Shown here: in pieces, positions 4,938 through 14,166 of the stretch
How positions within the stretch are numbered: the stretch's first letter is position 1
Layout of the letters: every line of letters begins with the position of its first letter
Source: an uncultured Clostridia bacterium
Lineage (GTDB): Bacteria; Bacillota; Clostridia; Oscillospirales; JAAYOS01
Direction: 5' to 3'
Assembly: GCA_944387575.1 (NCBI GenBank)
Contig: CALXFK010000091.1
Location: 1-62,135, forward strand
Length of the DNA: 62,135 bases
Position numbers and translations under genes: made by a program
Notes under the pieces: generated by a model
What the model was told of the DNA's origin: nothing
Databases searched by the model: none
Seen by the model: the letters and a program-made list of their open reading frames with translations, nothing else

Positions 4938-7063
4938 AGGTCATTCTTGCATCGACCGCTGGGTTCTGTTTCGGGGTGGACCGCGCGGTGAAACTTGCGG
5001 ACGAATGTGCCGGAAATGCGGCTACACTTGGTCCTATAATCCACAACAGCACCGTGACCCATGAGCTAGAAGAGCGTGGTGTGCGCATCGCGCAGGGGGT
5101 TGATGAACTGCGCCCGGGCGAGACTGCGATAATTTGTTCGCACGGCGCCCCTCGTGCGGTGCATGAGGAATTGAAACGGCGTGGAATAGAATACGTCGAT
5201 GCGACCTGTCCGTACGTAAAGCGTATACATGACACGGTCGCAAAGGAGAGCGCCCAGGGCAGACAGGTGGTAATAATCGGGCAGGCGCAGCACACCGAGG
5301 TGAAAGGGATAGCCGGATGGTGTGAGAGCCCGCCGCTTGTGTTCGAAAATGCCGAGGAGTTCTCAAAATGGCTTGATGAGGCGCCGGAAAACCGGTCAAA
5401 GGCGCTTTCAGTGGTCTCGCAGACAACGTTGGATATAAGCGTTTGGGAACAAATTGTGAATTTTTTAAAAAACCAGTGTACAAATGCGAAAAAGTTTGAT
5501 ACAATATGCAAAGCCACAATTCTGAGGCAGCGCGAGGCGGCGCAGATAGCCGCCGGCAGCGACGCCATGGTCATTGCGGGAGACAAGCGAAGCGCAAACA
5601 CCAGGCGGCTGTACGAGCTATGCCGTCGCTACTGCGAGAATGTTTTTCTTGTGGAGAATGCGGCTGGGCTCGGTGAATTTGGCGACTTTTCCACCGTCGG
5701 CGTCACCGCGGGGGCGTCAACGCCGAGGCGGATAATTATGGAGGTCTGTAAGAAAATGAGCGACGAAATACTGAACGTCACAGGTGAGGACGTAAACACT
5801 GCCGCAGAGCCTGCGGTAGAGAACGCGGAGCCGGCAGCGCCGGTTGCTGCCGAGGCTGACAAGGTCATTGAACCCGCAGCCGTATCTGAGGATGCTACTT
5901 TTGCAGAAATGCTTGAACAGACGTTCAAGACTTTGAATAACGGGGATAAGGTCAAGGGTGTTGTGACCGGGATTTCCGGCACCGAGGTTCAGGTCGATCT
6001 TGGTACCAAGCATGCGGGTTACATACCGCTTGCCGAGCTGGGTGACGATCAGGAGTTTATTTCCTCGCTTAAAGTTGGCGACGAGATAGAGGCGTCGGTC
6101 ATCCGCGTAAACGACGTCGAGGGCACCGCAATGCTCTCCAAGCGCCGTCTTGACAGTGCTAAGGGCTGGGAGGACGTTGAAGCTGCGGTAGAGAGCCATG
6201 AGACTATGGAAGGCTATATCACCGAGGAGAACAAGGGCGGTGTTGTGGCGTCGGTCAAGGGCGTGCGCGTGTTCATACCCGCGTCGCAGACCGGTGTTCC
6301 GCGCGGCGGTTCGCTGAGCGGTCTTGTCAAGACCAAGGTTCGCCTCAAGATAACCGAGGTCAATCGTGCCCGCCGCCGTGTTGTCGGTTCGATAAGCGCT
6401 GTTACGCGCGAGGAGCGCAAGGCTAAGGCGGAGCAGGTCTGGAACGAGATCGAAGAAGGGAAGATTTATGAGGGTGTCGTCAAGTCTATGACCAATTACG
6501 GCGTGTTCGTAGACATCGGCGGAGTGGACGGAATGGTCCACATTTCTGAGCTCTCCTGGCAGCGTGTACGTCATCCGCAGGATGTTGTTTCGGTTGGCGA
6601 CACTGTTACCGTGCATGTCCTCTCGTTTGACCGCGAGAAGAAGAAGATCTCGCTCGGATTGCGCACCGCGGAGGACAATCCGTGGACCAAGTTTGTTGCC
6701 GGATACAATATAGGCGACGTTATCACCGCTAAAGTGGTCAAGCTTATGACCTTTGGTGCTTTTGCGGAAATTATTCCCGGCGTCGACGGTCTTATACACA
6801 TCTCGCAGATTGCCGATCACCGCATAGGCAAGCCGGGCGATGTGCTCAGCGAGGGTCAGGAAGTTCAGTGCAAGATAACCAACGTCGACTACGACAAGCA
6901 GAAGGTCTGGCTCAGCATTCGTGCTCTTCTTGAGGCGGATGCCGCTGACGGATCCGCTCAGGACGATGAACCTGCCGAGGAGGATACAGGCGACGGAATC
7001 GTTGCTTCGAGCGAGGCTGGTGTTCTCACTATTTCCAAGGATATAGCGGATGTCGAAGAGTAA
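4934..7063 (+). CDS. ispH-rpsA: Fused 4-hydroxy-3-methylbut-2-enyl diphosphate reductase (IspH) / 30S ribosomal protein S1
   Basis: AGFCFGVDRA, HNSTV, DATCPYV, DTICKAT, TAGASTP (IspH) followed by four S1 repeats (e.g. YGVFVDIGGVDGMVHISEL). Confidence 0.95.
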   Translation: MKVILASTAGFCFGVDRAVKLADECAGNAATLGPIIHNSTVTHELEERGVRIAQGVDELRPGETAIICSHGAPRAVHEELKRRGIEYVDATCPYVKRIHDTVAKESAQGRQVVIIGQAQHTEVKGIAGWCESPPLVFENAEEFSKWLDEAPENRSKALSVVSQTTLDISVWEQIVNFLKNQCTNAKKFDTICKATILRQREAAQIAAGSDAMVIAGDKRSANTRRLYELCRRYCENVFLVENAAGLGEFGDFSTVGVTAGASTPRRIIMEVCKKMSDEILNVTGEDVNTAAEPAVENAEPAAPVAAEADKVIEPAAVSEDATFAEMLEQTFKTLNNGDKVKGVVTGISGTEVQVDLGTKHAGYIPLAELGDDQEFISSLKVGDEIEASVIRVNDVEGTAMLSKRRLDSAKGWEDVEAAVESHETMEGYITEENKGGVVASVKGVRVFIPASQTGVPRGGSLSGLVKTKVRLKITEVNRARRRVVGSISAVTREERKAKAEQVWNEIEEGKIYEGVVKSMTNYGVFVDIGGVDGMVHISELSWQRVRHPQDVVSVGDTVTVHVLSFDREKKKISLGLRTAEDNPWTKFVAGYNIGDVITAKVVKLMTFGAFAEIIPGVDGLIHISQIADHRIGKPGDVLSEGQEVQCKITNVDYDKQKVWLSIRALLEADAADGSAQDDEPAEEDTGDGIVASSEAGVLTISKDIADVEE

Positions 7064-7158: not shown

Positions 7159-10152
7159 ATGGCTCTGCTTAAAAAAATATCTGCATTCGTGCTCGCATCT
7201 GCGCTCGTGCTGTCCTCTATTCCGTTCAGCGCAAGCGCAGCAGGAGTGATCTCATCTGATACCAAAAGAATAGCGCCTGGTCTCGATCTCACGGTGTCAC
7301 AATACCAGAATTCAGGCGGCTCAAAAAACGAGGAGCGATACATAGTAAGCACACCGGGAAGCGGCGCTGTCCCGGTAGTTGCATACGGGTCAACACTGTA
7401 CGGAACATCCACCGTAAAATATGTTGCCTCGCACGAGACGTCGCGCGGAAATGAGGTTATTGCAGGAATAAACGGCGACTTCTATATGACCGATACCGGA
7501 GTCCCGATAGGAATAGTAATTACCGACGGTATTCTCCGCAGCTCGGACGCCGGAGTTAACGCGGTCGGTATGTATTCGGACGGCAGTGTCATCATCGGCA
7601 CTCCCGCTCTGAGCATAACCGCCGTTGCAGACAGCGGCGCTTCAGTCAAAATAGATTATGTAAACAAGACTCGAAAGAACTACGGTGTGTGGCTGCTGAC
7701 CGATGATTTTTCTGCAAATACCCGCGCGACAGGCGAGAGCGTGATGGTAGTGCTTGGTGGTTTGAGCGGGGAGCTTCGTGTCGGCGGGTATGTCAATGCA
7801 CAGGTAGTTGACATAATAACTACATCTACCACTCGTGAGATAGGTGCAGACGAGATGATAATAACCGCGACCGTAGAGAATGGGAATTCAGAGCGGCTGA
7901 GCGGGTTTGTTGTTGGAGACAACGTGCAGATAACTGTGACATCGCCGGATGAGCGGTGGAGCGAGGTCAGCTATGCCGTTGGAGCCGGGGATATGCTTGT
8001 AAGCGATTCTGCGGTTTGCAGTGGGTTAAGTACCAGCAAGAACCCGCGGACGGCGGTAGGAGTGCGCGCGGACGGAAGCGCGGTATTTTACACGGTTGAC
8101 GGACGCAGTGCGTCATGGTCGGCTGGCATGGGTCTTGACGAACTTGCGAACCGTATGCTCGAGCTCGGATGTGTGTCCGCGGTGAATATGGACGGCGGTG
8201 GTTCGACCGCAATGGTCGCGGCGATGCCTGGAAAAACTGAACTTGATACGCAGAACAGGCCTTCGGACGGTACGTTGCGTATGGGTGCAAACTACATTTT
8301 GTTCCTCAATAAGTCGGAATCGACCGGAATGGCAGAGCAGTTTTTCTTCTACCCGGAGACTGTCACGCTGCTCGCCGGCACCTCATATACTCCGAATTGT
8401 TACCCGACTGATCGCAATTATCATCCGGTAACTTTGCCTCAGGACGTGGAGTGGAGCGTATCTGGTCAGGGCAGTGTGGATGCGAGCGGAAGATACACTG
8501 CTCCGGAAGGGTTCACCGGAGTGGACGTCATAACTGTGTCCAACGGGGCGTATAGCGGAAGCATGCAGGTGAACGTTATTTCTTCCCCGGATAATATTTA
8601 TGTTACAAGCGGTGACGAGAAAATAACCGAGCTGCGGCTCGAGCCGTCGCAGAGTATTTCGCTCGGCGCATACTGCGAGTATGCGGGTGAGGAGATCGAG
8701 TCCGCAAGTACCCTCTACAAGTGGAACGTGAGCGGCGGAATAGGCAGCATGAGCTCGGACGGGAAGTTTACGGCAACGGCTGAAAATGGCGTGCGCGGTA
8801 CTATCACCGTGAGCTACGGCTCCGCTACCGCCACGGTGAATGTGACGGTGGGCAAGGGCAGTACCCTCATTGACGGCTTTGAAAACGGCAACTCGGGCAT
8901 TTCGGGTAGCGCCACTGGGATAACCTCAAGCGTTCAGTCCGAGCGTGCATATGTCAAATACGGCGAGTCGTCCGCCAAAATAGTCACGAACTTCGGTGCC
9001 GACTCGAGTAAGGCGTCGCTCGCAACGAACTGGAAGATACCTGTCGGTTCGCTCACGCTTAAAATGTGGGTGTACGGCGACAATTCGCAAAACGAACTGG
9101 GCGTCACGGTTGCGATGGATGACGGTTCACAGAGGTATATCAAGGTCTGTGCCCTGAATTATAAGGAGTACGCGCTTCAGACGGTCGAACTGCCGGATGG
9201 CGCAGTATCGGTGAGCTCGGTGGATATAACCCGCACCGCGAGCGGACGTAGTACCGGGACCATTTACATTGACCAGGTGACGGCATCCTATTCGAGTGGA
9301 GCGGATACGACACCTCCGGTGATCTCTGCGGTGAAGGTTGATTCGGTGACCACACCCGGTTCCGCGGTCCTGACCGCCGCGTTCTCGGACGATGAGAGCG
9401 CGGTGCTCGCCGAAAATATCGCGATAATGTTTGACGGAGTTAAAATAGGGTTCAGCTACGACAGCGCGTCGTCCACCCTCATCTCCACGCCGATAGACCC
9501 GTCGGATGGCAAGCTTCACCGCATAACGATCGAAGCGTCGGACGCTGCTGGTAACGTATCGCGGTACACATACACCTACGACCTGCGCCAAGGGACCGAG
9601 CAGAGCCCATTTGCGGATGCAGCCGGTGAGTCGAGCATATACGCTGCAAATTACCTCAATGCTCGCGGTGTTCTGAACGGGTCACTTGCAAACGACGGCA
9701 AGCTCTACTACTACCCGCAGAAGACGATGACGAGAATGGAGTTTGCTGTGCTCATGGCAAACTACCTGAAGGTGGATCTGAGTGAGTATTCGGAGGTCGA
9801 ACTCCCGTTTACCGACGCGGCGTCGATTGACAACTGGGCGCAGGATGCCGTCAAGGCAATGTATGCGCTCGGAATAATCAGTGGCAAGGCTAAAAATGAC
9901 GGAACGCTCATATTTGACCCCAGGGCAACGATGACTCGTGCTGATGTCTGCACAGTGCTTGGACGCACACTGCCGGGTGGTTATCAGAGCGCAGATCTCA
10001 AGTTTGACGATGCAAGCTCGATCCCGTCATATGCAAAGGAGTTTGTCGGCGTGCTCGTGACCATTGGGGCGCTGCAAAATAGCGGCAGCTTCCGACCGAC
10101 CGACAGTATTACCCGCTCCGAGGCAGCGCTGCTGGTGTACGGCATGTATTGA
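7159..10152 (+). CDS. Secreted phosphodiester glycosidase (NAGPA-like) with Ig-like domains and C-terminal SLH repeats
   Basis: Signal peptide ending ASA; INGDFY, NPRTAVG, VDGRS, NMDGGGST; SLH motifs MTRMEFA, MTRADV, ITRSEAA. Confidence 0.85.
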   Translation: MALLKKISAFVLASALVLSSIPFSASAAGVISSDTKRIAPGLDLTVSQYQNSGGSKNEERYIVSTPGSGAVPVVAYGSTLYGTSTVKYVASHETSRGNEVIAGINGDFYMTDTGVPIGIVITDGILRSSDAGVNAVGMYSDGSVIIGTPALSITAVADSGASVKIDYVNKTRKNYGVWLLTDDFSANTRATGESVMVVLGGLSGELRVGGYVNAQVVDIITTSTTREIGADEMIITATVENGNSERLSGFVVGDNVQITVTSPDERWSEVSYAVGAGDMLVSDSAVCSGLSTSKNPRTAVGVRADGSAVFYTVDGRSASWSAGMGLDELANRMLELGCVSAVNMDGGGSTAMVAAMPGKTELDTQNRPSDGTLRMGANYILFLNKSESTGMAEQFFFYPETVTLLAGTSYTPNCYPTDRNYHPVTLPQDVEWSVSGQGSVDASGRYTAPEGFTGVDVITVSNGAYSGSMQVNVISSPDNIYVTSGDEKITELRLEPSQSISLGAYCEYAGEEIESASTLYKWNVSGGIGSMSSDGKFTATAENGVRGTITVSYGSATATVNVTVGKGSTLIDGFENGNSGISGSATGITSSVQSERAYVKYGESSAKIVTNFGADSSKASLATNWKIPVGSLTLKMWVYGDNSQNELGVTVAMDDGSQRYIKVCALNYKEYALQTVELPDGAVSVSSVDITRTASGRSTGTIYIDQVTASYSSGADTTPPVISAVKVDSVTTPGSAVLTAAFSDDESAVLAENIAIMFDGVKIGFSYDSASSTLISTPIDPSDGKLHRITIEASDAAGNVSRYTYTYDLRQGTEQSPFADAAGESSIYAANYLNARGVLNGSLANDGKLYYYPQKTMTRMEFAVLMANYLKVDLSEYSEVELPFTDAASIDNWAQDAVKAMYALGIISGKAKNDGTLIFDPRATMTRADVCTVLGRTLPGGYQSADLKFDDASSIPSYAKEFVGVLVTIGALQNSGSFRPTDSITRSEAALLVYGMY

Positions 10153-10177: not shown

Positions 10178-10206
10178 TTGCATTTTCACGGTCAATAAGA
10201 TATAAT
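10178..10206 (+). promoter_or_regulatory. sigmaA-type promoter for the leader-ABC exporter transcript
   Basis: TTGCAT-17 nt-TATAAT. Confidence 0.75.
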
Positions 10207-10253
10207 ACCGCAGGATAGGAAAACTACGCCAAACTGTGAAAGGAGGACGGACG

Positions 10254-10364
10254 ATGAAGAACGCGTATGTTGAGTTTAATGCAGTGCTCAATGGTGGCGC
10301 TTGCGATGCGGGTGGCGCGGTTGTATTCGCGTCCGAAAATAAATATTATACGGTCTGTGCGTAG
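10254..10364 (+). CDS. Putative 36-aa leader peptide MKNAYVEFNAVLNGGACDAGGAVVFASENKYYTVCA
   Basis: Strong SD (AAGGAGG) 7 nt before ATG, just downstream of the promoter; too short for the supplied ORF track. Confidence 0.7.
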   Translation: MKNAYVEFNAVLNGGACDAGGAVVFASENKYYTVCA

Positions 10365-10456
10365 ATGATGAAGTGTACTTATATAGCGCGGACCGTAAGG
10401 TCCGCGCTATAAAGCTATAAATATAAAATAGCTGCGGATATTCCGCAGCTATTTTT
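10349..10456 (+). promoter_or_regulatory. Transcription attenuator with mutually exclusive hairpins ending in an intrinsic terminator
   Basis: Perfect 13-bp hairpin 10382-10411 (GTAA loop); terminator 10425-10456 with T run; alternative pairings 10349-60:10386-97 and 10401-10:10428-38. Confidence 0.75.
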
Positions 10457-10501
10457 GTATCTTAAAAGAATTATAAATTACGGAGAGGGAGTGCAACAAG
10501 T

Positions 10502-12334
10502 ATGAATCGTATGCGCCTCAAAGCACTTTGGGGCTACATGAAGGGGTTCCGCTGGATGCTGGTAGTGGGTCTTGTACTCATGGCGGGCGAGCTGTTCCTT
10601 TCATTTATCTCGCCGCTCGTTCTTTCGGTAACTATCGACACGGTGCTGGATGACAATCCGGTAAACGTCCCCGTCTATTTTAGGTGGTTCGTGGATGGCA
10701 TCCTTGGAGGTGATACCGGTATTCGCGCAAACGTCGAGCGCAGCCTCTGGATAATGGCAATTGCGATGATAGTGTTCCGGCTGTTGAGTGGCGCGCTTAC
10801 ATTTTCCAGAAGTTATGTAAACTCGATGGCGAGTGAAAAGACCGTCGAGCGGGTGCGCGACCGGTTTTATGCGCATGTGCAGCGACTGCCGTTTCAGTAT
10901 CATGTTGGAGCACAGACGGGCGACCTGATACAGCGCGCGACCAACGACATGGAGACGATGCGCAGGTTTATCACCGGGACGATGCTCGAGTTTGTACGGA
11001 CCATACTGCTGTTTGTGGTGGGTATATTTGTAATGGCGGGAATGCATGTACCGCTCACGCTGATAACATTGTCACTTGCACCGTTTCTGGTGCTGGTGAG
11101 CCTGATATTTTTCAACCGAATACAGAAGCTCTTCCTTGTGCTTGAGCAGGAGGAGGGGCAGATGTACACTGTCGTGCAGGAGAATCTGACCGGAATGCGT
11201 GTGGTACGGGCGTTTGGTCGAGAGCGGTTTGAGCTCGACAAGTTTACCGACACCAACAGCAGGCTTCGTGAAAAGACGGTGAAACTGAACTACGCATTTG
11301 CAAACCTCTGGTCGGCTCTCGACCTTGTGAGCGGTTTGCAGATATCGCTTGTCGCAATTTTCGGAATAATATACACCGTAAACGGCAGTCTGTCGCTCGG
11401 TGAATACACTGCGTTCCTTTCATATGTGTACACGTTCATATGGCCGCTTCGAGGGTTCGGAAGAGTGCTTTCCGACTTTGGTCGCTCGCTTATCGCGGTC
11501 GGACGAATTCAGGAGGTGTTGGGCGAACAGGAGGAGGACCCGGTGGCTGACGGCGAAATGCCGCCTCTGTCGGGGGACATAGACTTCAAAAACGTCAACT
11601 TCAGCTATGACAAGGGGCAGAGTGTACTCCACGACCTGAATATGCACATTGCCGGAGGGAGCACCGTAGCTATTCTCGGCGGAACCGGAAGCGGTAAGAG
11701 CACAGTGGTGCAGCTTCTTCAGCGGCTGTATGACATTGATTCAGGAGAAATAACGATCGGCGGCGTCGATATTACCGGGATTTCAAAGGATTATCTGCGC
11801 GATCACATAGGTATCGTGTTACAGGAGCCGTTTCTCTATTCTAAGACCATATTTGACAATATAGGCATAAAGTATGAACAGTTGGACAGCGAGCGCGTGT
11901 ATGAGGCGGCGCGTGTCGCGGCTATACACGACGACATCGAATCGTTTGAGAACGGATACGACACGGTCGTCGGAGAGCGCGGAGTGACACTTTCAGGAGG
12001 TCAGAAGCAGCGTGTGGCGATAGCCCGCGCGCTTATAGGTGACAGCGACATCCTGATATTTGACGACTCGCTTTCTGCGGTCGATGCAAAGACCGACGCA
12101 CAGATACGTGGCGCACTCGCGTCAAGGAGAAAGGGAACCACAACGATAATAATCTCACACCGCATAACCACGCTCATGGAGGCGGATCACATATTCGTCA
12201 TGAAGGATGGTGCAATTGCGGAGGAGGGTACGCACGAGGAACTGCTGGCGCTTGGTGGAATATACCGGCGCACATACGATATTCAGAGCCTGACGGCGGA
12301 AGAACCGGAGATTGAAAGGGGGGACAGGCAGTGA
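10502..12334 (+). CDS. Heterodimeric ABC exporter subunit 1 (TMD-NBD, multidrug type)
   Basis: TM domain, Walker A GGTGSGKS, signature LSGGQ, degenerate Walker B ILIFDD. Confidence 0.93.
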   Translation: MNRMRLKALWGYMKGFRWMLVVGLVLMAGELFLSFISPLVLSVTIDTVLDDNPVNVPVYFRWFVDGILGGDTGIRANVERSLWIMAIAMIVFRLLSGALTFSRSYVNSMASEKTVERVRDRFYAHVQRLPFQYHVGAQTGDLIQRATNDMETMRRFITGTMLEFVRTILLFVVGIFVMAGMHVPLTLITLSLAPFLVLVSLIFFNRIQKLFLVLEQEEGQMYTVVQENLTGMRVVRAFGRERFELDKFTDTNSRLREKTVKLNYAFANLWSALDLVSGLQISLVAIFGIIYTVNGSLSLGEYTAFLSYVYTFIWPLRGFGRVLSDFGRSLIAVGRIQEVLGEQEEDPVADGEMPPLSGDIDFKNVNFSYDKGQSVLHDLNMHIAGGSTVAILGGTGSGKSTVVQLLQRLYDIDSGEITIGGVDITGISKDYLRDHIGIVLQEPFLYSKTIFDNIGIKYEQLDSERVYEAARVAAIHDDIESFENGYDTVVGERGVTLSGGQKQRVAIARALIGDSDILIFDDSLSAVDAKTDAQIRGALASRRKGTTTIIISHRITTLMEADHIFVMKDGAIAEEGTHEELLALGGIYRRTYDIQSLTAEEPEIERGDRQ

Positions 12335-14166
12335 GCAGTGCGATTAAAGAGAAGGAATACCAGGGGCAGAAAATAAACTTTGGAACCTGGAGAAAAATTC
12401 TGAGTTATGCGGGAAGAAAAAAGAAATATATATACACCGCACTGATATGCGGTGCGCTCACCGGAATCCTTGACCTGTTCACGTCGCTATTATCCCGCTG
12501 GGCGATAGACGATTTCATATCCAAAAGTTCGCTTGGCGGATTTTCGTGGTTCATATTTGCGTACCTTGCGGTGCAGACGCTGTTTGCAGTTTTCACATGG
12601 TTTTTTTCACGGGCGTGCGGAAACCTCGAGGCGAACATGACCGCGGACATACGCGAGGAGGCATTCTCAAAGCTCCAGACACTCTCGTTTTCCTACTTTG
12701 ACAGGACATCGGTCGGGCACCTGCTCGCGAGGATGACCACCGATGTCAGTCGTACCGTCGAGACAATTTCATGGTGCTTTATCGACCTCGGATGGGGAGT
12801 GATGGCAATAATTGCGAGCATCGTAGGTATGCTGATAATCGAGTGGAAGCTCGCACTGATACTGCTTGCTGCGCTCCCGCTGCTGGTGTTGATAAGCATT
12901 GCGTTCCAGAAGCGGATACTCCGTTTCCAGCGCGAGACTCGGCGGCTCAACAGCATGATAACTTCGTCTTTCAACGAGGGAATCATGGGCGCACGCACCA
13001 CAAAGACACTCGTGCGGGAGAAACTGAACGACCGCGAGTTCTTCGTGACCGCGTCTGATATGCGCTCCGCATCCATGAGAGCGGTGGCAATATCCGCGCT
13101 TTATATGCCGGTTGCGTCGATGGTGATAAGCATAGCAGTCGGCGCGGTGCTGGTAGGCGGCGGCTACAATGTGATGGATGGGCTTCTAACCATCGGTACT
13201 CTGAACTTCTTTATAAACATCGGCAACATGATGTTCGAGCCGATACGCAACTTCACTCGCATTTTCGCAGACTTCCAGTCCTCGCAGGCGGCGGCGGAGC
13301 GTGTTATAGACGTGCTAATGGAGGAGCCAGAGATAGTCGACGGAGATGATATAGTCAAAAAGTATGGCGACATGTTCGACGCAAATCGTGAAAACTGGGA
13401 GCCGATACGCGGCGATGTAGAGTTCAAAAACGTGAGCTTCTGGTACAAGGACGGGGAGAAGGTTCTCAAGAACTTCAATCTAACCGTAAAGGCGGGGGAG
13501 AACATAGCGCTAGTTGGCGAAACGGGAAGCGGCAAGAGTACGATAGTCAACCTTGTCTGCCGGTTCTACGAGCCGCAGGAGGGTGAAATACTGATCGACG
13601 GCAAGGACATCCGCTCGCGCAGCCAGCTGTGGCTACAGTCGAGTCTTGGCTATGTGCTTCAGTCGCCACACCTGTTCAGCGGAAGCATAATGGAGAACAT
13701 CCGGTACGGAAGACTGAACGCAACCGACGAAGAGGTGATCGCGGCAGCGGAGATGGTGGGCGCCGACGCATTCATTCGGGCTCTCGAAAAGGGGTATGAC
13801 ACCGAAGTCGGCGAGGGCGGTGGACTGCTCTCCACCGGGCAGAAGCAGCTCATCTCGTTTGCACGCGCGATAATCGCTGACCCGAAGATATTCGTACTCG
13901 ACGAGGCTACAAGCTCGATAGACACCGAGAGCGAGGTCAAGATACAGAAGGCGAGCGAGGCGCTGTTGCACGGGAGAACCAGCTTCATTATTGCTCACAG
14001 ACTTTCGACCATAAGAAACGCTGACCGCATCCTCGTCATCGACAAGGGCGAGATACTTGAACAGGGTAGCCACACTGAGCTTATGAAAAAGCGCGGCTAC
14101 TACTACGAGCTGTACACGAATCAGTTCAAAAATGACCGCGAGCTCGAGTCGCTTGCCGCGCTGTAA
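12331..14166 (+). CDS. Heterodimeric ABC exporter subunit 2 (TMD-NBD)
   Basis: GTGA overlap with subunit 1; GETGSGKS, degenerate signature LSTGQ, consensus Walker B FVLDE, IAHRLST. Confidence 0.93.
   Translation: MSSAIKEKEYQGQKINFGTWRKILSYAGRKKKYIYTALICGALTGILDLFTSLLSRWAIDDFISKSSLGGFSWFIFAYLAVQTLFAVFTWFFSRACGNLEANMTADIREEAFSKLQTLSFSYFDRTSVGHLLARMTTDVSRTVETISWCFIDLGWGVMAIIASIVGMLIIEWKLALILLAALPLLVLISIAFQKRILRFQRETRRLNSMITSSFNEGIMGARTTKTLVREKLNDREFFVTASDMRSASMRAVAISALYMPVASMVISIAVGAVLVGGGYNVMDGLLTIGTLNFFINIGNMMFEPIRNFTRIFADFQSSQAAAERVIDVLMEEPEIVDGDDIVKKYGDMFDANRENWEPIRGDVEFKNVSFWYKDGEKVLKNFNLTVKAGENIALVGETGSGKSTIVNLVCRFYEPQEGEILIDGKDIRSRSQLWLQSSLGYVLQSPHLFSGSIMENIRYGRLNATDEEVIAAAEMVGADAFIRALEKGYDTEVGEGGGLLSTGQKQLISFARAIIADPKIFVLDEATSSIDTESEVKIQKASEALLHGRTSFIIAHRLSTIRNADRILVIDKGEILEQGSHTELMKKRGYYYELYTNQFKNDRELESLAAL

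Follow-up and report, generated by a model that had tools for sequence, protein, structure and literature searches.

What controls a two-gene ABC exporter operon that is preceded by an unannotated small open reading frame (ORF) and a series of mutually complementary segments? The operon lies in a 62,135-nt stretch of DNA from an uncultured Clostridia bacterium (here called the window), and an initial annotation had described its upstream region as a leader peptide followed by a five-segment RNA attenuator. The evidence below makes it quite probable that the element is a ribosome-dependent (leader-peptide) transcription attenuator, which senses ribosome position and controls the heterodimeric exporter operon.

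Architecture of the leader region

The features of the locus are collected in Table 1. The GTG start of gene B overlaps the stop codon of gene A by 4 nt, and the nucleotide-binding domains show the asymmetry that had been stated for them; half-transporter A lacks the catalytic Glu because its Walker B motif reads ILIFDD. The neighbors of the pump genes are an SLH/NAGPA wall protein and MntP, and no modification, immunity, or adjacent regulator genes were found near them.

TABLE 1 Features of the exporter locus (positions are those of the window)
Feature	Position	Strand	Details
Candidate promoter	10178..10206	+	TTGCAT 10178-10183 (-35), 17-nt spacer, TATAAT 10201-10206 (-10); read from sequence
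S0, 5'-UTR segment immediately 5' of the SD	10223..10239	+	Predicted pairing with S1 and stop codon (10348-10365), -16.8 kcal/mol
Shine-Dalgarno (SD) AAGGAGG of leader ORF	10241..10247	+	6-nt spacer to ATG at 10254
Leader ORF, 36 codons plus TAG, MKNAYVEFNAVLNGGACDAGGAVVFASENKYYTVCA	10254..10364	+	Unannotated; ORF reading
S1, last leader codons, TACGGTCTGTGC	10349..10360	+	Putative sensor segment; alternative partners S0 or S2
Hairpin 1, anti-antiterminator S2:S3	10382..10411	+	S2 arm 10382-10394, GTAA loop 10395-10398, S3 arm 10399-10411; 13 perfect pairs
S2 segment complementary to S1, GCGCGGACCGTA	10386..10397	+	S1:S2, 12 pairs, 2 of them G-U
Antiterminator S3:S4	10400..10439	+	10400-10410 with 10428-10439; 11 pairs including one terminal G-U; U10433 bulged (constrained fold)
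Intrinsic terminator S4:S5	10425..10456	+	Stem 10425-10438 with 10442-10455, TAT loop, T-run 10452-10456
ABC half-transporter A, 610 aa	10502..12334	+	ABC_membrane and ABC_tran; Walker B ILIFDD; signature LSGGQ
ABC half-transporter B, 611 aa	12331..14166	+	GTG start; canonical Walker B VLDE; degenerate signature LSTGQ

Promoter, SD, and leader ORF all fall between the stop codon of the upstream gene (10152) and the hairpins. Direct reading showed the -10 box, the strong SD, and the ORF to be present as claimed. The elements and spacing of the claimed promoter are likewise there, but its -35 hexamer agrees with TTGACA at only 3 of 6 positions, and this weakness explains why the promoter was missing from a consensus scan. 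Orthologues carry TTGACA/TTGACT-17/18-TATAAT promoters at the equivalent relative position. The leader peptide had no match in NCBIfam and is partly alignable with the 41- to 45-aa leaders of a sister genus.

The S1:S2 helix and the perfect GTAA-loop hairpin S2:S3 were found exactly as described in the initial annotation. For S3:S4, the pairing and its bulge stood, but the constrained fold gave 11 pairs instead of 10; this antiterminator is mutually exclusive both with hairpin 1 and with the terminator. The T-tailed terminator, placed earlier at about 45 nt before the ABC gene, ends 46 nt before its start and has 14 pairs, 6 of them G-C, with a core of -18.1 kcal/mol. The leader stop codon (TAG at 10362) precedes the S2 arm by 17 nt, so that a terminating ribosome would cover S1 and not S2.

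Conservation across homologous loci

A census of the order yielded 87 loci, from 87 of 401 genomes; the 82 whose upstream DNA spans at least 370 nt enter the counts given here. A leader ORF plus terminator lay upstream in 10/10 loci with protein identity of at least 60% and in 4/4 at 47 to 59%, but in only 8/68 at 40 to 46%. Promoter, strong SD, short ORF, and terminator were all present in the 14/14 loci whose identity was 47% or more and whose upstream DNA was intact. Leaders range from 15 to 45 codons and are variable in peptide sequence, and the end of the ORF always falls on S1. Orthologues of other genera have the same alternative pairings, built from different sequences.

Alignment A1 comprises seven sequences from two genera, four of them near-identical, and its helices were defined on one of the seven. 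In it, the helices of the OFF state (S0:S1, S2:S3, and S4:S5, with S0 taken up below) had 91.2% of cells paired, compared with 35 to 45% when partner columns were slid; 10 pairs were changed on both sides, and 0/500 shuffles reached the observed values. RNAalifold, unaided, returned the same three helices with compensatory change in 11 of 37 pairs, and the sister genus retains an equivalent of hairpin 1 in which both bases differ at 3 pairs. The helices of the ON state (S1:S2 and S3:S4) had 86.3% of cells paired versus 35 to 44% when slid, with a covariation score of 0.256 versus 0.204 (9/500 shuffles reached the observed value). The core of S1:S2 (columns 170-175 with 209-214) was paired in all seven sequences, and S3:S4 in 85.7% of cells.

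Cognate and non-cognate duplex energies were compared by permutation in 19 loci from several families, several of these loci being mutually related. The S1 × S2 region gave -20.0 kcal/mol for cognate and -16.6 kcal/mol for non-cognate duplexes (2/20000 permutations; n = 15), and the S3 region × S4 gave -10.3 and -9.2 kcal/mol (250/20000; n = 15). The S1:S2 and S3:S4 pairings, whose fate in relatives the initial annotation had left to be checked, are thus kept through sequence change, as seen both in A1 and in the permutations. The parts, their mutually exclusive helices, and the conservation and covariation of these are accordingly present in silico.

An added segment upstream of the Shine-Dalgarno sequence

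All five segments of the earlier scheme are there, but the scheme had overlooked a sixth, S0, that competes with S2 for S1 and whose addition changes the behavior predicted for an untranslated leader. Taken over the 19 loci, S0 × S1 duplexes had -19.7 kcal/mol when cognate and -14.1 ± 0.74 kcal/mol when non-cognate (0/20000 permutations); judged from these sequences, S0:S1 complementarity is locus-specific across the family. The window pairing alone is unexceptional, as 24% of 641 genomic 33-mers pair equally well with the same segment. It is also shifted 5' of the SD relative to relatives, and about half of the window's pairs form at the aligned columns. A role of S0:S1 as a default-OFF protector is something that we consider evenly balanced.

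Folding energetics

The window region folded with z scores of -4.81 (294 nt) and -7.51 (123 nt) against shuffles, 0/200 of which matched it in either case. Before S5 is made, the ON fold has -34.8 kcal/mol and the OFF fold -37.8 kcal/mol, so that ON is less stable by 3 kcal/mol. In the equilibrium ensemble, S2:S3 had a probability of at least 0.998 and S1:S2 of at most 0.002 under all six ribosome masks tried. Since ON is never the equilibrium fold in the window, it would have to be a kinetic, cotranscriptional state there.

The orthologues give a more varied picture. Folded without S5, 6 of 17 loci had a minimum free energy structure that was cleanly S1:S2 plus S3:S4, and in 3 further loci the leader end paired straight with the 5' arm of the terminator, which is the same logic with no relay. 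When S1 was masked in such folds to mimic a ribosome positioned on the stop codon, S2:S3 came back. When the three-state logic was put to a crude test at equilibrium, the expected pattern appeared in only 6/16 loci, the window not among them. The switching logic proposed earlier draws support from comparison with orthologues but not from the window ensemble.

Proposed mechanism and alternative readings

Beyond the parts and their helices the model is inferential: it includes what the ribosome does, a kinetic ON state, S0 as default-OFF protector, which signal induces the switch, and what the pump exports, which may be drugs. The element is very probably an attenuator that makes use of the leader ORF, and most likely this ORF and the competing hairpins turn the pump on upon ribosome stalling. 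Transcription is predicted to begin at about 10213, and the strong SD would put ribosomes on the 36-codon leader, with S1 in its last codons serving as sensor. Were S1 free as S2 emerges, S1:S2 would form, S3 would pair with S4, no terminator would arise, and polymerase would read through into the ABC genes (ON). Were S1 masked, S2:S3 would fold first and the S4:S5 terminator after it, and the transcript would end at about 10456 (OFF). Masking could come from a ribosome that has arrived at the TAG and covers S1, or from pairing of S1 with S0 while the 5'-UTR/SD region is free of ribosomes. Given these two ways of masking, ON would be expected only when leader translation has begun and is not finished in time, with ribosomes arrested or slowed at the leader start or within the leader, as by translation inhibitors. 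Ribosome-targeting compounds may be the natural signal, though the opposite seems to us just as plausible.

The same RNA switch could instead be operated by a specific arrest peptide, in which the nascent chain and one small molecule (drug or metabolite) in the exit tunnel stall the ribosome, so that a single compound and not general translation stress would be sensed. Leaders of the window genus and its sister genus do have common [YF]-N-F...A-C-[DE] and K/E-N-E/K-Y blocks, and in the codon alignment the first of these blocks has synonymous third-position differences at its F, N, A, and D/E codons. Their pN/pS values of 0.36 to 0.73 in 15 pairs indicate weak purifying selection on the peptide, but they are far from those of strongly constrained proteins, and part of the conservation falls in stretches also constrained as RNA. 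Moreover, pumps that are 65 to 68% identical in other genera have unrelated 18- to 28-aa leaders, more distant families have still other leaders, and no motif is common to 23 leaders; we regard this reading as rather unlikely. A trans-acting or ligand trigger of antitermination in place of the ribosome, whether a protein that binds the RNA, a tRNA, or the small molecule of a riboswitch, would fit the generic terminator/antiterminator/anti-antiterminator layout, which many such systems use. However, no Rfam family reached threshold (the best, nqrA-II, reached 31.4 bits where the gathering score is 55), and no regulator gene is adjacent. Invariance across families is confined to the SD, the start codon, and the ending of an ORF on S1; the remaining sequence turns over, which a protein or ligand pocket should not tolerate, and we consider this possibility very improbable.

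The small ORF with its strong SD directly upstream of an ABC exporter might also encode a secreted peptide (a bacteriocin, RiPP, or signal peptide) exported by the ABC pair, the hairpins merely setting the precursor:transporter mRNA ratio. Bacteriocin operons often have a partial terminator behind the precursor gene, and the window peptide has two Gly-Gly pairs and two Cys. The Gly-Gly pairs, however, are not conserved in orthologues, the peptides are unrelated between genera, both half-transporters have no C39 peptidase or other domain beyond the two in Table 1, and the surroundings offer no modification or immunity genes. Export would also leave the conserved mutually exclusive helices and the S0:S1 pairing unexplained, and we give it hardly any credence. 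Just as little credence goes to an absence of regulation, in which the hairpins would be an intergenic stabilizer or leaky tandem terminator and chance would have produced the ORF and the alternative pairings. Tandem similar hairpins yield S3:S4 complementarity automatically, the window equilibrium always has both hairpins, and its S0:S1 is not individually significant. Chance, however, would have to account for a promoter, SD, and ORF placed just between the upstream stop codon and the hairpins, for an ORF and terminator kept in every locus of at least 47% identity despite sequence turnover, for the locus-specific complementarity of S1:S2 and S0:S1, and for three-segment variants that lack the tandem hairpin and retain the same logic.

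Comparison with known attenuators

In the E. coli trp leader, a protector pairing (1:2) causes transcription to terminate by default as long as the leader is not translated. The attenuator proposed here resembles trp-type attenuators in that ribosome position on the leader ORF would select among mutually exclusive helices, and S0:S1 may correspond to the 1:2 protector in causing default termination with an untranslated leader. It differs in having no codon run for one amino acid, in having six segments and a relay hairpin instead of four segments, and in a protector that involves the translation initiation region of the leader. Classical leader-peptide attenuators of amino acid operons are also described in the discussion of the bmrB report (PMC4191407).

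The Bacillus subtilis vmlR, tlrB, and ytbDE genes have uORF attenuators which, as summarized in PMC13689557, join a terminator and an anti-antiterminator to a leader uORF, read-through following when antibiotics cause stalling. According to the same summary, the vmlR and tlrB designs include SD-sequestering stem-loops; the sequestered SD is tied there to translation control of the resistance gene, whereas here the SD concerned belongs to the leader itself and is partnered by S1. The genes regulated there code for an ABCF factor, an rRNA methyltransferase, and an MFS-type pump (PMC13689557); here they code for a type IV ABC exporter pair. In Streptococcus pneumoniae, a terminator/antiterminator/anti-antiterminator is likewise predicted directly before a heterodimeric ABC exporter, patAB, where just 67 nt separate the transcript start from patA (Baylay and Piddock 2015, PMC4319486). 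Point mutations in that terminator increase pump expression, and induction has been reported for fluoroquinolones and for DNA damage; unlike here, no leader peptide is described in the portions of that report cited (PMC4319486).

The closest functional parallel, already drawn in the initial annotation, is bmrB (yheJ), the leader of the B. subtilis bmrCD heterodimeric multidrug ABC exporter (Reilman et al. 2014, PMC4191407). In both, a short ORF, translated in bmrB and predicted to be so here, stands immediately before a heterodimeric ABC exporter, and the terminator/antiterminator/anti-antiterminator layout is shared, read-through being proposed for bmrB upon slowed leader translation (PMC4191407). 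The analogy holds as functional likeness only: compared with BmrCD, the pump proved not to be orthologous, and the attenuator would work like bmrB-bmrCD without homology. The three bmrB stem-loops lie within the 162-nt ORF (nt 60 to 162), so that the ribosome translates through them (PMC4191407), whereas here every hairpin comes after the stop codon and S1 is the sole coding segment. The bmrB system is also under growth-phase control by AbrB. The role of the bmrB anti-antiterminator is called unclear in the cited passages of its authors (PMC4191407); relative to that system, S1 adds a fourth, upstream layer and S0, in the SD/5'-UTR region, a fifth. The element would thus be a new and conserved form of an already known type of control.

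Leader Region and the ABC Exporter Genes

The window sequence confirmed the features that an initial annotation had described upstream of two ABC transporter genes (10502-12334, encoding chain A, and 12331-14166, encoding chain B). The promoter, the Shine-Dalgarno (SD) sequence, the leader ORF, the pairings S1:S2 and S2:S3, and the terminator are all present in the sequence as listed there, where S1 designates the last leader codons, S2:S3 a relay hairpin (hairpin 1) and putative anti-antiterminator, S3:S4 the putative antiterminator, and S4:S5 the terminator. For S3:S4, the site and the single bulge were likewise found, and the count of 10 bp was revised to 11 pairs, one of them a terminal G-U. 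The elements are collected in the following table.

Sequence features of the leader region in the window
Feature	Position	Strand	Details
Candidate promoter, -35 TTGCAT	10178-83	+	17-nt spacer; -10 TATAAT at 10201-06
Leader SD, AAGGAGG	10241-47	+	6-nt spacer to ATG at 10254
Leader ORF	10254-10364	+	36 codons, then TAG at 10362-64
S1 with S2	10349-60 with 10386-97	+	12 pairs, 2 of them G-U
Hairpin 1 (S2:S3)	10382-94 with 10399-411	+	Perfect 13 bp, GTAA loop
S3:S4 alternative	10400-10 with 10428-39	+	11 pairs including one terminal G-U; one bulged U
Terminator stem	10425-55	+	T5 after stem; 46 nt 5' of ABC start at 10502

The weak point of the candidate promoter is its -35 hexamer, which matches the consensus at three of six positions and for that reason is missing from a consensus promoter scan. 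The region folds far better than shuffled sequence, with z scores of -4.81 (294 nt) and -7.51 (123 nt) and none of 200 shuffles as good at either length. A search of Rfam returned 12 weak matches, all below the gathering threshold, the best being nqrA-II at 31.4 bits versus a threshold of 55. The terminator at 10425-10455 was called on both strands by the scan, because an A-run upstream and a T-run downstream flank the stem; the minus-strand call is probably incidental, since no gene converges on the site from the right.

Chains A and B each contain PF00664 (ABC_membrane) and PF00005 (ABC_tran) and no other domain. Chain A carries ILIFDD, without the catalytic Glu after Walker B, together with LSGGQ, and chain B carries VLDE together with the non-canonical signature LSTGQ, which bears out the nucleotide-binding domain asymmetry (FDD/LSGGQ versus LDE/LSTGQ) noted in the initial annotation. 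We take this asymmetry to indicate a heterodimeric type IV exporter with one degenerate ATP site, of the TM287/288, TmrAB, and BmrCD class. The two genes are adjacent with a 4-nt overlap, in which the GTG start of the second (12331-12334) overlaps the stop codon of the first (GTGA), and this overlap suggests translational coupling of the two half-transporters. The operon is preceded by the gene for a wall protein of 997 aa that has NAGPA and SLH domains and whose coding sequence stops at 10152, and it is followed by MntP in convergent orientation; none of the adjacent genes encodes a regulator, a peptidase, or a modification or immunity function.

Occurrence of the Leader Arrangement in Relatives

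Three sets of genomes were searched with the ABC protein P0001. Among 61 related genomes, 20 carry a homolog (E≤1e-100); the 13 genomes examined from the window's own family include 10 that do (E≤1e-180); and a sample of 401 genomes from across the order yields 87 (E≤1e-140). For each of these 87 loci, the DNA preceding the ABC gene was screened with one automated rule. To pass, a locus needed a hairpin with a T-run no more than 200 nt upstream of the ABC start, together with an ORF of 10 to 70 codons that has its own SD and whose end lies no more than 130 nt ahead of that terminator; counts are given for loci whose upstream DNA extends to 370 nt or more. Leader ORF and terminator were both present in 10/10 loci at 60% protein identity or higher and in 4/4 loci at 47 to 59% identity, so that the arrangement of SD, short ORF, and terminator accompanies 14 of 14 loci at 47% identity or higher with intact upstream DNA. 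At 40 to 46% identity, the fraction was 8/68. An eleventh locus at 60% identity or higher, L048, is cut by a contig end that leaves the terminator alone visible. Four loci (L012, L057, L082, and L095) have a leader ORF and a hairpin with T-run that failed the strict terminator rule; L057 and L082 were added by hand to the duplex-energy tests described below. Other homolog searches, in genome contigs and metagenome contigs, gave 13 and 14 loci that were left out of all counts; the best of these shows 44% identity, with an incomplete upstream region, and most show 24 to 33%. Judged from these sequence comparisons, an unannotated leader family appears to control a single group of orthologous heterodimeric ABC exporters that is spread over several families within the order.

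Individual loci depart from the window in several ways. At L008:1269-1456, a tandem duplication of about 40 nt, comprising S1/S2 and a small hairpin, lies inside the attenuator and brings the stop-to-terminator distance to about 125 nt. In the sister genus, the terminator of L002, L003, L004, and L006 is separated from the ABC start by an additional G+C-rich spacer (about 145 to 155 nt after the terminator), and L005 and L007 have, beside such a spacer, a second weak hairpin and T-run 33 nt before the ABC start; the spacer or second hairpin may constitute a second control layer. In L002 to L007, the first 30 nt or so after the -10 box form a small 5' stem-loop (e.g., CTGTG...CACAG with a GAAA-type loop) that is missing from the window and may serve as a 5'-end stabilizer. 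Sequencing runs yielded seven low-depth contig pieces of the window region, all at least 99% alike and without variants, none of which spans 10346-10420.

Alternative Helices and Their Conservation

The proposal that S1:S2 and S3:S4 (the ON set) are conserved alternatives was upheld in relatives by folds, by pairing in alignment A1 (the window plus six sister-genus loci), and by cognate duplex energies. Each fold began 33 nt before the leader stop and ended at the terminator loop, so that S5 was still missing; 20 leaders were examined, and 3 that had no terminator by the finder used were set aside, leaving 17 loci. The minimum free energy (MFE) structure was cleanly S1:S2 plus S3:S4 in six of these (L002, L005, L007, L009, L010, and L049), and in three more (L011, L087, and L113) the leader end pairs directly with the 5' arm of the terminator, a three-segment version of the same logic. 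When the last codons were blocked as by a terminating ribosome, S2:S3 was restored, for example in L002, L005, and L007.

With S5 absent, the MFE structure of the window keeps S2:S3, the ON conformer lying only 3 kcal/mol higher (-34.8 versus -37.8). In its equilibrium ensemble, the probability of S2:S3 never drops below 0.998, and that of S1:S2 never exceeds 0.002, whichever of the six ribosome masks tried is applied. The mutually exclusive antiterminator predicted in the initial annotation exists in the window as an alternative pairing whose ON fold is unpopulated at equilibrium. Because the equilibrium ensemble hardly populates S1:S2, ON would have to be a kinetic, co-transcriptional state. 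An equilibrium read-out of the three-state logic, taken as the fraction of S4 paired upstream under the masks, gave the predicted pattern in 6/16 loci, not including the window; this read-out is noisy, S4 being always paired.

Alignment A1 has helices defined on one of its seven sequences and four near-identical rows among the seven, and its statistics are to be read with that composition in mind. The ON helices are paired in 86.3% of cells versus 35 to 44% when the 3' partners are slid by one to three columns, and six core S1:S2 pairs form in 7/7 sequences. Three ON pairs show double changes, a number reached by 67 of 500 shuffles, and the ON covariation score is 0.256 versus 0.204, reached by 9 of 500. 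The OFF set, consisting of S2:S3, S4:S5, and a further helix, S0:S1, in which S0 is the leader's 5'-UTR/SD region, is paired in 91.2% of cells versus 35 to 45% when slid; ten of its pairs differ in both partners, and none of 500 shuffles matched these values. RNAalifold, run unguided, predicted the S0:S1 helix, hairpin 1, and the terminator, with a compensatory change in 11 of 37 pairs.

Duplex energies were compared between cognate and permuted partners in the 15 relay-hairpin loci, some of which are relatives of one another. S1 with its own S2 region gave -20.0 kcal/mol versus -16.6 ± 0.84 for permuted partners, a difference reached in 2 of 20,000 permutations. The gain for the S3 region with S4 was modest, at -10.3 versus -9.2 ± 0.49 kcal/mol (250 of 20,000 permutations).

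A Sixth Segment at the Leader SD

In whole-leader folds of almost every relative, the leader's own SD and the spacer between SD and start codon (S0) pair with the last codons (S1). Spacer and S1 co-vary between lineages: GGAGAGCCGG occurs with CCGGCTCTT, GGAGGCCGG with CCGGCCTT, GGAGATCGG with CCGGTCTCTT, GGAGGCGAACA with TGTTCGCCTTTT, GGAGCGGGAAAAA with TTTTTCCCGCC, and GGAGGTGCGCGAAAT with ATTTTGCGCACC. Across 19 loci, several of them mutually related, cognate S0xS1 duplexes averaged -19.7 kcal/mol versus -14.1 ± 0.74 for permuted partners, and none of 20,000 permutations did as well. Since every S0 contains an SD and every S1 a CCUU-like stretch, this excess reflects locus-specific complementarity.

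The window is the weakest S0:S1 case, with about half of its pairs forming at the A1-aligned columns. Its best S1 partner lies just 5' of the SD (10223-39 with 10348-65, -16.8 kcal/mol), at an energy that beats all but 0.2% of shuffled S1 sequences and is matched by 24% of 641 genomic 33-mers. A second, inner helix in the window, 10248-57 with 10325-34, covers the spacer and start codon. The S0:S1 pairing may act during the decision, or only afterwards by silencing or stabilizing the terminated RNA. The kind of element proposed in the initial annotation, and most of its detail, stood; the S0 segment was absent from that reading, and the ON state in the window would have to be kinetic.

A scan of the window genome for SD, short ORF, terminator, and long ORF in succession gave 13 distinct candidates, the window locus among them. 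The remaining ones mostly represent the C-terminal portions of ordinary genes that are followed by a terminator, and no second copy of the element was evident among the 13. On contigs C61 (+, 5451-5625) and C32 (+, 13570-13737), SD-preceded ORFs of 13 and 10 codons are followed by a terminator and then a long ORF, with strong S0xS1-type duplexes of -21.2 and -20.3 kcal/mol, respectively; these may be other leader-type attenuators.

The Leader Peptide and Rival Readings

The leaders range from 15 to 45 codons and are unrelated in sequence between most genera; even genera with pumps 65 to 68% identical have unrelated leaders of 18 to 28 aa. Every leader ORF nevertheless ends on, or a few bases past, the S1-equivalent segment. 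Leaders of the window genus and its sister genus share the motif [YF]-N-F...A-C-[DE] and a K/E-N-E/K-Y block. In the former, the codons for F, N, A, and D/E vary synonymously at the third position (window 10281-10322 and the leaders of L002, L005, and L007), a hint that selection acts on some of the nascent peptide. Uncorrected pN/pS values of 0.36 to 0.73 across 15 leader pairs indicate weak purifying selection, as would fit translation plus a few constrained residues. The leader's most conserved nucleotide stretch between the two genera is an A-rich block directly 5' of S1 (10331-10346), which reads CCGAAAATAAATATTA in the window and CCCAAAAATGAATATC in the sister genus; the two versions differ by transitions, with E and K exchanged in the peptide as a result. 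Possible roles for this block include those of an unstructured spacer, an RNase site, and a decoding feature.

No NCBIfam model matched the window leader peptide. The 45-aa L002 leader, used as a query, found one unnamed cluster among 5.8 billion protein sequences, and the family is therefore effectively unannotated. Because leader ORFs are nearly absent from protein databases, standard annotation misses the control element entirely.

Two other functions for the short ORF were considered and set aside as unlikely. The leaders look rich in Cys and Asn by eye, as a sensor of cysteine or asparagine starvation might, yet neither codon type occurs in runs, and S1, where the sequence is constrained by RNA pairing, accounts for several of the Cys codons. 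A short ORF before an ABC exporter might also encode a bacteriocin or RiPP precursor with its dedicated transporter. That reading is opposed by the domain content of the pump, which has neither a C39 peptidase nor a cargo-handling domain beside ABC_membrane and ABC_tran, by leader Gly-Gly pairs that are not conserved, and by neighbors that comprise only the SLH/NAGPA protein and MntP.

Proposed Mechanism

In the proposed mechanism, S1 would be contested by S0 and S2 at the head of an exclusion chain, S0:S1 / S1:S2 / S2:S3 / S3:S4 / S4:S5, and whenever S1 is unavailable to S2 the terminator would form. A ribosome at the TAG codon would mask S1 and leave S2 exposed, as the S2 arm begins 17 nt past the stop, giving OFF. 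An untranslated leader would fold S0:S1 and likewise be OFF, much as in the protector pairing of the trp leader. ON would arise solely where ribosomes occupy the initiation region but fall short of the leader end, so that S1 captures S2 and S3 is free for S4; translation inhibitors or another slowing of leader translation would be the cause. Loss of the start codon separates the two models: the original five-segment model predicts constitutive read-through, and the six-segment model, which adds S0, predicts termination. Since the three-segment relatives, pairing S1 with S4 directly, would compute the same function, selection would have kept the logic and not any particular hairpin.

A bolder reading, which we consider possible though on balance doubtful, is that the element is a six-segment AND relay (S0 masked and S1 free) that specifically reports arrested early translation, with the relay hairpin optional and with [YF]NF...AC[DE] tuning the response to particular compounds in the window and sister genera. 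Such an AND relay would stay silent when ribosomes are simply scarce, and it could work with only loose coupling of transcription and translation; the S2:S3 hairpin would be dispensable, as the three-segment relatives would follow the same logic. If the AND reading is true, gut Clostridia would hold a widespread, unannotated, drug-inducible efflux module.

Ribosome-sensing leaders that control inducible efflux are well documented in Bacillus, Listeria, and streptococci. To our knowledge, such control is hardly documented in the anaerobic Clostridia, which dominate animal guts. Should translation inhibitors prove to be substrates of the pump, the element would serve as the mark of a group of resistance determinants, intrinsic and inducible, that gut commensals carry. 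The conserved pairing of S1 with the leader's own SD region also suggests a simple design rule for default-OFF switches, with possible reuse in synthetic RNA circuits.

Comparison with Known Systems

By its short ORF with an SD, its intrinsic terminator, and its mutually exclusive antiterminator, the element would be classed as a leader-peptide transcription attenuator, for which we infer ribosome dependence. The closest known case is bmrB-bmrCD of Bacillus subtilis, described in PMC4191407 as a heterodimeric ABC exporter behind a translated leader with terminator, antiterminator, and anti-antiterminator, induced by ribosome-targeting drugs. The analogy drawn in the initial annotation is sound for the leader and the three-layer design before a heterodimeric exporter; it does not extend to the position of the hairpins or to orthology of the pump. 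In bmrB, according to the same source, the stem-loops lie within the coding region, at nt 60-162 of 162, and the role of the anti-antiterminator was left open by the authors, whereas here hairpin 1 and the terminator (10382-10456) are 3' of the leader stop at 10362-10364. The pump is also not an orthologue of BmrC/BmrD (YheI/YheH): the 32 PDB matches of the chain A transmembrane domain (E≤1e-15) include no BmrC chain, and for that of chain B, BmrD (7m33_D) ranks 25th of 33 (E of 1.5e-18), behind BmrA, TmrA, TM288, and MsbA.

Other attenuators share parts of the design. As summarized in PMC13689557, vmlR, tlrB, and ytbDE of B. subtilis are uORF attenuators, some with SD-sequestering stem-loops, and patAB of Streptococcus pneumoniae has a predicted three-layer attenuator, for which the available part of PMC4319486 does not mention a leader peptide. 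According to a review (PMC5418344), Term-seq has shown elements of this kind to be widespread among Gram-positive bacteria and in the oral microbiome. In a literature search that left most subscription journals outside its reach, we found no description of this leader family and no efflux attenuator in which the leader's own SD pairs with the leader 3' end. The element is a new, conserved form of a well-known kind of control.
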